From assembly GCF_030384885.1 (NCBI RefSeq), contig NZ_CP128613.1: 64,000 nucleotides of DNA; one strand, 5' to 3'. The notes below the pieces were generated by a model. That model was not told where the DNA came from and did not search any database. It was given only the letters and a program-made list of their open reading frames with translations. Numbering within the stretch: position 1 is the first letter of the stretch; the number at the start of each line of letters is the position of its first letter. Of this stretch, positions 55,653-57,209 are shown piece by piece. This DNA comes from Escherichia coli (GTDB lineage Bacteria > Pseudomonadota > Gammaproteobacteria > Enterobacterales > Enterobacteriaceae). A program made the translations under genes and the position numbers.

Positions 55653-57209
55653 TTGATCCCGGACGTATCACAGGCGCTGGCCTGGCTGGAAAAACATCCT
55701 CAGGCGTTAAAGGGGATACAGCGTGGGCTTGAGCGCGAAACTTTGCGTGTTAATGCTGATGGCACACTGGCAACAACAGGTCATCCTGAAGCATTAGGTT
55801 CCGCACTGACGCATAAATGGATTACTACCGATTTTGCGGAAGCATTGCTGGAATTCATTACACCAGTGGATGGTGATATTGAACATATGCTGACCTTTAT
55901 GCGCGATCTGCATCGCTATACGGCGCGCAATATGGGCGATGAGCGGATGTGGCCGTTAAGTATGCCATGCTATATCGCAGAAGGTCAGGACATCGAACTG
56001 GCACAGTACGGCACTTCTAACACCGGACGCTTTAAAACGCTGTACCGTGAAGGGCTGAAAAATCGCTACGGCGCGCTGATGCAAACCATTTCCGGCGTGC
56101 ACTACAATTTCTCTTTGCCCATGGCATTCTGGCAAGCGAAGTGCGGCGATATCTCGGGCGCTGATGCCAAAGAGAAAATTTCTGCGGGCTATTTCCGCGT
56201 TATTCGCAATTACTATCGTTTCGGTTGGGTCATTCCTTATCTGTTTGGCGCGTCTCCGGCGATTTGTTCTTCTTTCTTGCAAGGAAAACCAACGTCGCTG
56301 CCGTTTGAGAAAACTGAGTGCGGTATGTATTACCTGCCGTATGCGACCTCTCTTCGTTTGAGCGATCTTGGCTATACCAACAAATCGCAAAGCAATCTTG
56401 GTATCACCTTTAACGATCTCTACGAGTACGTAGCGGGCCTTAAACAGGCAATCAAAACGCCATCGGAAGAGTACGCAAAGATTGGTATTGAGAAAGACGG
56501 TAAGCGGTTGCAAATCAACAGCAATGTGCTGCAGATTGAAAACGAACTGTACGCGCCGATTCGTCCAAAACGCGTTACCCGCAGCGGCGAGTCGCCTTCT
56601 GATGCACTGTTACGTGGCGGCATTGAATATATTGAAGTGCGTTCGCTGGACATCAACCCGTTCTCGCCGATTGGTGTAGATGAACAACAGGTGCGATTCC
56701 TCGACCTGTTTATGGTCTGGTGTGCGCTGGCTGATGCACCGGAAATGAGCAGTAGCGAACTTGCCTGTACACGCGTTAACTGGAACCGGGTGATCCTCGA
56801 AGGTCGCAAACCGGGCCTGACGCTGGGTATCGGCTGCGAAACCGCGCAGTTCCCGTTGCCGCAGGTGGGGAAAGATTTGTTCCGCGATCTGAAACGCGTG
56901 GCGCAAACGCTGGATAGCATTAACGGCGGCGAAGCGTACCAGAAAGTGTGTGATGAACTGGTCGCCTGCTTCGATAATCCCGATCTGACTTTCTCTGCCC
57001 GTATCTTAAGGTCTATGATTGATACTGGTATTGGCGGAACAGGTAAAGCGTTTGCTGAAGCGTACCGTAATCTGCTGCGTGAAGAGCCGCTGGAAATTCT
57101 GCGTGAAGAGGATTTTGTAGCCGAGCGCGAGGCGTCTGTACGCCGTCAGCAGGAAATGGAAGCCGCTGATACCGAACCGTTTGCGGTGTGGCTGGAAAAA
57201 CACGCCTGA
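55653..57209 (+). CDS. gshA: Glutamate--cysteine ligase GshA, 518 aa, TTG start
   Basis: Begins (TTG)[32 protein letters not shown]; length match. Confidence 0.92.

Follow-up and report, generated by a model that had tools for sequence, protein, structure and literature searches.

Glutathione synthesis starts with a rate-limiting step catalysed by GshA, whose gene in the window (the whole 64,000-nt stretch of DNA analysed here) is read as beginning with TTG. TTG starts approximately 3% of E. coli genes according to the K-12 annotation and is thus uncommon rather than rare. The question raised by this locus is whether the TTG is the genuine start of gshA and, if so, whether it matters that the codon is a weak one; a weak start would cap the level of the enzyme and tie it to polyamine status under oxidative stress. 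On the evidence set out below, it is almost certain that gshA starts at the TTG at 55653 and nowhere else, and that the weak UUG limits GshA synthesis and confers polyamine dependence on it; selection is inferred to keep the codon. The start position is established by several concordant lines of evidence, and a published experiment demonstrated that UUG costs a factor of three in synthesis and that polyamine dependence disappears when AUG takes its place (PMC4405209).

The TTG opens an ORF of 1557 nt on the plus strand that closes with a TGA at 57207-57209 and encodes 518 amino acids. The product belongs to the proteobacterial type of glutamate--cysteine ligase, matching the family models above their curated cutoffs: Pfam PF04262 (Glu_cys_ligase) is matched by residues 10-380 (E 1e-169; 564.5 bits, cutoff 27) and the NCBIfam equivalog TIGR01434 by residues 6-517 (917.9 bits, cutoff 393.3). 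Residues 1-518 of the crystallised enzyme (PDB 1V4G, 1VA6, 2D32 and 2D33) align to residues 1-518 of the window protein, from which the PDB chains differ in engineered Cys-to-Ser changes and E496V. Furthermore, E27, E29, D60, E67, H150 and E328 are all present in the window protein and are invariant in 51 aligned sequences; the numbering used for these residues in the published list of metal ligands is that of the E. coli enzyme structure. It is with these residue numbers that the Mg2+ ligands of the gamma-GCS fold are listed (PMC12817896).

RefSeq annotates gshA at the same coordinates in E. coli strain 2013C-4282 (L001 1754-3310, equivalent to 55653-57209 of the window), whose 2-kb gshA region is 100% identical to that of the window. 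The K-12 MG1655 gene (b2688, 1557 nt) is also annotated by RefSeq from the same TTG, and the window and K-12 genes share 97.5% nucleotide identity with a single amino-acid difference (E496V). Only 15 of 5424 E. coli genomes reach at least 99% identity to the gshA region (55400-57400), the others standing at 95-99%, i.e. the 2-kb region diverges by 1-5% from most E. coli genomes. Because matches of at least 99% are so few, the window strain, which is identical to 2013C-4282, is on sequence grounds a minority lineage at the gshA locus.

Within the gshA frame, translation could hardly begin further upstream. There is no ATG, GTG or TTG in frame between the TAA at 55623, 30 nt 5' of the TTG, and the TTG itself, and the TAA makes an N-terminal extension of GshA impossible in the window. 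In 38 of the 51 sequences, likewise, the stretch from the closest stop upstream down to the homologous start contains no in-frame ATG, GTG or TTG, and an extension is possible on paper in only 11 species of the Buttiauxella and Cedecea group. The Shine-Dalgarno (SD) sequence that serves the TTG is predicted to form a duplex of -11.0 kcal/mol with the 16S anti-SD, compared with -6.8 kcal/mol or weaker for all other in-frame ATG, GTG and TTG codons in the first 104 codons of gshA, and all 31 aligned species retain its GGAGGT unchanged. Conservation also extends into the protein from its first residues, as mean identity across related species is 90% for residues 2-78 and 85% for the remainder. 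The upstream stop, the SD sequence, the RefSeq and K-12 annotation and the conservation therefore agree with the original prediction that the full-length glutamate-cysteine ligase begins at this TTG. The coordinates of the features discussed are collected in Table 1.

Table 1. Features at and around the gshA start, in window coordinates
Feature	Position	Strand	Basis
Conserved TTATGCT box, putative -10 promoter element	55613..55619	+	Conservation across genera
In-frame TAA closing the gshA frame upstream, 30 nt 5' of TTG	55623..55625	+	Sequence
Near-invariant translation-initiation block, GACAGGCGGGAGGTCAAT-TTG-codons 2 to 13	55635..55691	+	Alignments, synonymous entropy
Predicted small hairpin, hypothetical	55641..55661	+	RNAalifold consensus
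Shine-Dalgarno GGGAGGT, 4 nt 5' of TTG	55642..55648	+	Anti-SD duplex, conservation
TTG initiation codon	55653..55655	+	Sequence, conservation, published UUG-to-AUG experiment
gshA CDS, glutamate--cysteine ligase, 518 aa	55653..57209	+	ORF listing, Pfam/TIGR01434, RefSeq coordinates, PDB 1V4G
First in-frame ATG, codon 79 (rival start)	55887..55889	+	Sequence
MicA sRNA, convergent with gshA	57219-57290	-	Rfam (RF00078, 83.9 bits)
Two-gene cassette between luxS and emrB	57919-59735	-	Domain matches, annotation
tRNA cluster upstream of yqaB	53311-54305	+	Rfam

What the weak codon does has been measured in K-12. Sakamoto et al. (2015, PMC4405209) described the gshA initiation codon as an inefficient UUG and, working with a plasmid fusion in a polyamine-auxotroph host, found that a gshA-lacZ fusion containing the first 38 codons had 3.0-fold higher basal synthesis when its UUG was changed to AUG, and that the stimulation by polyamines then dropped from 2.4-fold to 1.1-fold. 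Under tellurite stress, polyamines increased the synthesis of native GshA 3.0-fold at 24 h, acting on translation (PMC4405209). The effect was assigned to the class of the polyamine modulon with UUG or GUG starts, in which polyamines enhance UUG- or GUG-dependent binding of fMet-tRNA (PMC4405209). The K-12 gene is the same gene as that of the window, with no relevant difference between them; over 81 nt around the start, TTG and SD sequence included, the two do not differ at all, and the K-12 fusion result therefore applies directly to the window. The window gene has a UUG initiation codon, the codon type of the inefficient-start class of the modulon. The suggestion that the non-ATG start reflects translational tuning is thus supported, and had been published already; both the TTG start and its interpretation as tuning are real, correct and known.

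The results can be brought together in a simple mechanism. The TTG at 55653 is the true and sole start, read as fMet and placed by the strong SD sequence. Because UUG pairs poorly with the initiator tRNA, GshA synthesis is held at about one third of the level expected with AUG, and the weak codon makes synthesis dependent on polyamines, which improve UUG-dependent binding of fMet-tRNA to the ribosome. gshA thereby belongs to the polyamine modulon, with glutathione synthesis going up in stationary phase and under oxidative stress. The AUU start of infC (IF3) is comparable, in that a conserved non-canonical codon acts as a regulatory device and not as a defect; the infC codon is discriminated by its own product, IF3, whereas no product feedback is known for the gshA start codon. 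Watanabe et al. 1986 (Nucleic Acids Res 14:4393) were reportedly the first to sequence gshA and already gave TTG as its start. [quoted passage not shown]

A homologue search had only Enterobacteriaceae among its best 120 matches. A scan of one genome per species gave 53 related loci; the start was readable in 50 of these, which together with the window made 51 sequences. The homologous start codon is TTG in 49 of the 51, at 70-96% nucleotide identity to the window, and TTG is likewise the start in Salmonella; Enterobacteriaceae bacterium B14 and Tatumella, the pair furthest from the window, have GTG. ATG was found at the gshA start in none of the 51 sequences (the window and 50 related species). 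Of 5424 complete E. coli genomes, 5404 share the same 81 nt with the TTG at the centre, and no exact match to ATG or GTG variants of this region was found in the complete E. coli genomes. Neutral sites seldom stay fixed over such evolutionary distances: of 130 fourfold-degenerate columns, only 3 do not vary among the 49 sequences with TTG. A change of the codon's first base to A or G would leave the protein as it is, and its invariance therefore argues for selection on the weak codon. We infer that the weak TTG has been kept by selection across the Enterobacteriaceae, with the 49 TTG observations coming from related species and so not being independent of each other; nor is conservation of the start-codon T cleanly separable from conservation of the block that surrounds it. 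Outside this family, a 449-bp contig (L054) in an assembly of Fictibacillus nanhaiensis (Bacillales) carries a gshA fragment with 91% identity to the enterobacterial protein, which is most likely assembly contamination.

The block itself is unusual. Upstream of gshA, conservation begins abruptly at GACAGG (55635) after a variable A/T-rich spacer, and downstream of the TTG it continues through codons 2-13, where synonymous codon entropy drops to 0.32 bits from a mean of 1.08 over the whole gene. This is, by a wide margin, the lowest value for any 12 consecutive codons of gshA, and all three of the invariant fourfold sites of the gene fall here, in codons 3, 5 and 12. Control genes from the same genomes have only a mild 5' depression of entropy (luxS, 0.91 vs 1.00; yqaB, 0.98 vs 1.33). 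The alignments thus point to extra constraint on the gshA initiation region. As additions to known biology, the family-wide retention of TTG and the unusually constrained initiation region are incremental and deserve a small follow-up at most; the constraint could justify a modest mutagenesis study.

One source of this constraint could be a specific regulatory element running from the SD sequence to codon 13, either a hairpin that polyamines or temperature would open or a site bound by an sRNA or protein, and the TTG would be only one part of this element. The contrast in synonymous entropy with luxS and yqaB, which are little depressed, argues for such an element, as does the presence of the sole invariant fourfold sites inside the block. 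A consensus hairpin predicted by RNAalifold is also consistent with it: CGGGA (55641-45) would pair with TCCCG (55657-61) and TCA (55648-50) with TGA (55654-56), so that the SD sequence would be paired with bases 2-3 of the start codon. UUG, AUG and GUG all give it the same predicted energy of -6.2 kcal/mol, since the codon contributes its first base to the loop. Substitutions within the hairpin are few among the 49 TTG-bearing sequences, and those that occur are at loop positions or convert A-U to G-U pairs. Against this, the hairpin has no covariation, the block being invariant, and local fold z-scores at the gshA start (-0.3 to -0.9) are not significant; the predicted stem is furthermore partly broken in two outgroups, the sequences with GTG starts. 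Significant local RNA structure at the gshA start is therefore unsupported by the z-scores, and what is left is a weak consensus hairpin without covariation, in which the SD sequence and the start codon may pair as the folding model proposes. A lower rate of synonymous change at enterobacterial gene starts is, moreover, reportedly a general effect (Eyre-Walker and Bulmer 1993) and speaks against an explanation specific to gshA. An Rfam scan of the window returned only MicA and five tRNAs, so that the 5' end of gshA matches no cis-regulatory RNA family on record there, and in the papers found to name both gshA and sRNAs, gshA appears only as the neighbour of micA, which also counts against a regulatory element.

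A simpler reading is that the weak start codon makes initiation sensitive to its context and thereby tightens selection on the whole initiation region. Set beside it, the regulatory element is possible but tentative, and we are a little more doubtful again of the stricter claim that the 57-nt block (55635-55691) is dedicated to the post-transcriptional control of glutathione synthesis, working together with the UUG as a hairpin or as the site of a trans-acting factor. If true, the response to polyamines or to stationary phase could have its structural basis in the block.

A second alternative would account for the tolerance of a weak codon by having the TTG used through termination-reinitiation, coupled to a 13-codon upstream ORF that runs from an ATG at 55615 to the TGA at 55654-55656. 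This ORF is present in the window, its ATG lies inside the conserved TTATGCT box and its stop overlaps the gshA start as TTGA, an arrangement that resembles known coupling junctions. The frame, however, is not conserved: single-base indels in the spacer put the ATG into the gshA frame in 11 species of the Buttiauxella and Cedecea group, and the upstream ORF is therefore not a conserved coding unit. The spacer also evolves without a codon pattern, and gshA has a strong SD sequence of its own. Unlike the remainder of the yqaA-gshA spacer, the TTATGCT box is conserved across genera, and it is putatively a -10 element, judged by this conservation; if so, the ATG within it would not be transcribed. 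A consensus promoter scan called nothing in the spacer, the box included. Coupling through the TTGA overlap is accordingly rejected for lack of a conserved frame, and the upstream ORF is a very improbable explanation for the use of TTG.

The ATG brought into frame by the 1-nt insertion lies 13 codons upstream of the gshA start and was seen in loci L030-L032, L034, L035, L037, L041, L042, L045, L046 and L051. The in-frame box ATG that is found in the Buttiauxella and Cedecea group is probably the cause of the 531-aa gene models in the databases (P0104, P0112 and P0116).

The least credible alternative, that GshA is translated from a downstream ATG, the first being codon 79 (55887), and that the TTG ORF is an annotation artefact, can draw on ATG being the commonest start codon and on a weak GGAUGGUGA stretch upstream of ATG79 (-6.8 kcal/mol duplex), albeit 11-19 nt away, but has a negligible chance of being correct and is ruled out by conservation, by domain coverage and by the published 38-codon fusion: such a start would drop residues 1-78, which are conserved above the rest of GshA from residue 2 onwards and include the invariant E27, E29, D60 and E67, and would cost approximately 70 positions of the Pfam domain, when the family models begin at residue 10 (Pfam) and residue 6 (TIGRFAM), and the gshA-lacZ fusion does yield product, in amounts that depend on which codon stands in the UUG position (PMC4405209). 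As that fusion ends before codon 79, initiation at a downstream ATG, the outcome that the original prediction had named as fatal to a TTG start, is excluded for it.

Several other features of the window lie close to gshA. The gene converges with micA, and the MicA terminator hairpin (57223-57240) begins 14 nt past the gshA stop, without a T run on the plus strand. Between luxS and emrB there is a two-gene cassette. The product of one gene, annotated as 'ATP-binding protein', has 370 aa and carries an AAA_33 kinase-like domain at its C-terminal end, and the other gene encodes a 235-aa RNA ligase family protein (PF09414); the two resemble a pair of the RNA-repair or defence type. Of 5426 complete E. 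coli genomes, 999 carry this cassette; K-12 lacks it, and there luxS and emrB are directly adjacent. On the other side of gshA, the tRNA cluster opens with a 90-nt tRNA, after which come four 74-nt tRNAs with identical scores spaced at about 275 nt, the last two of which are tRNA-Arg in the matching RefSeq record.
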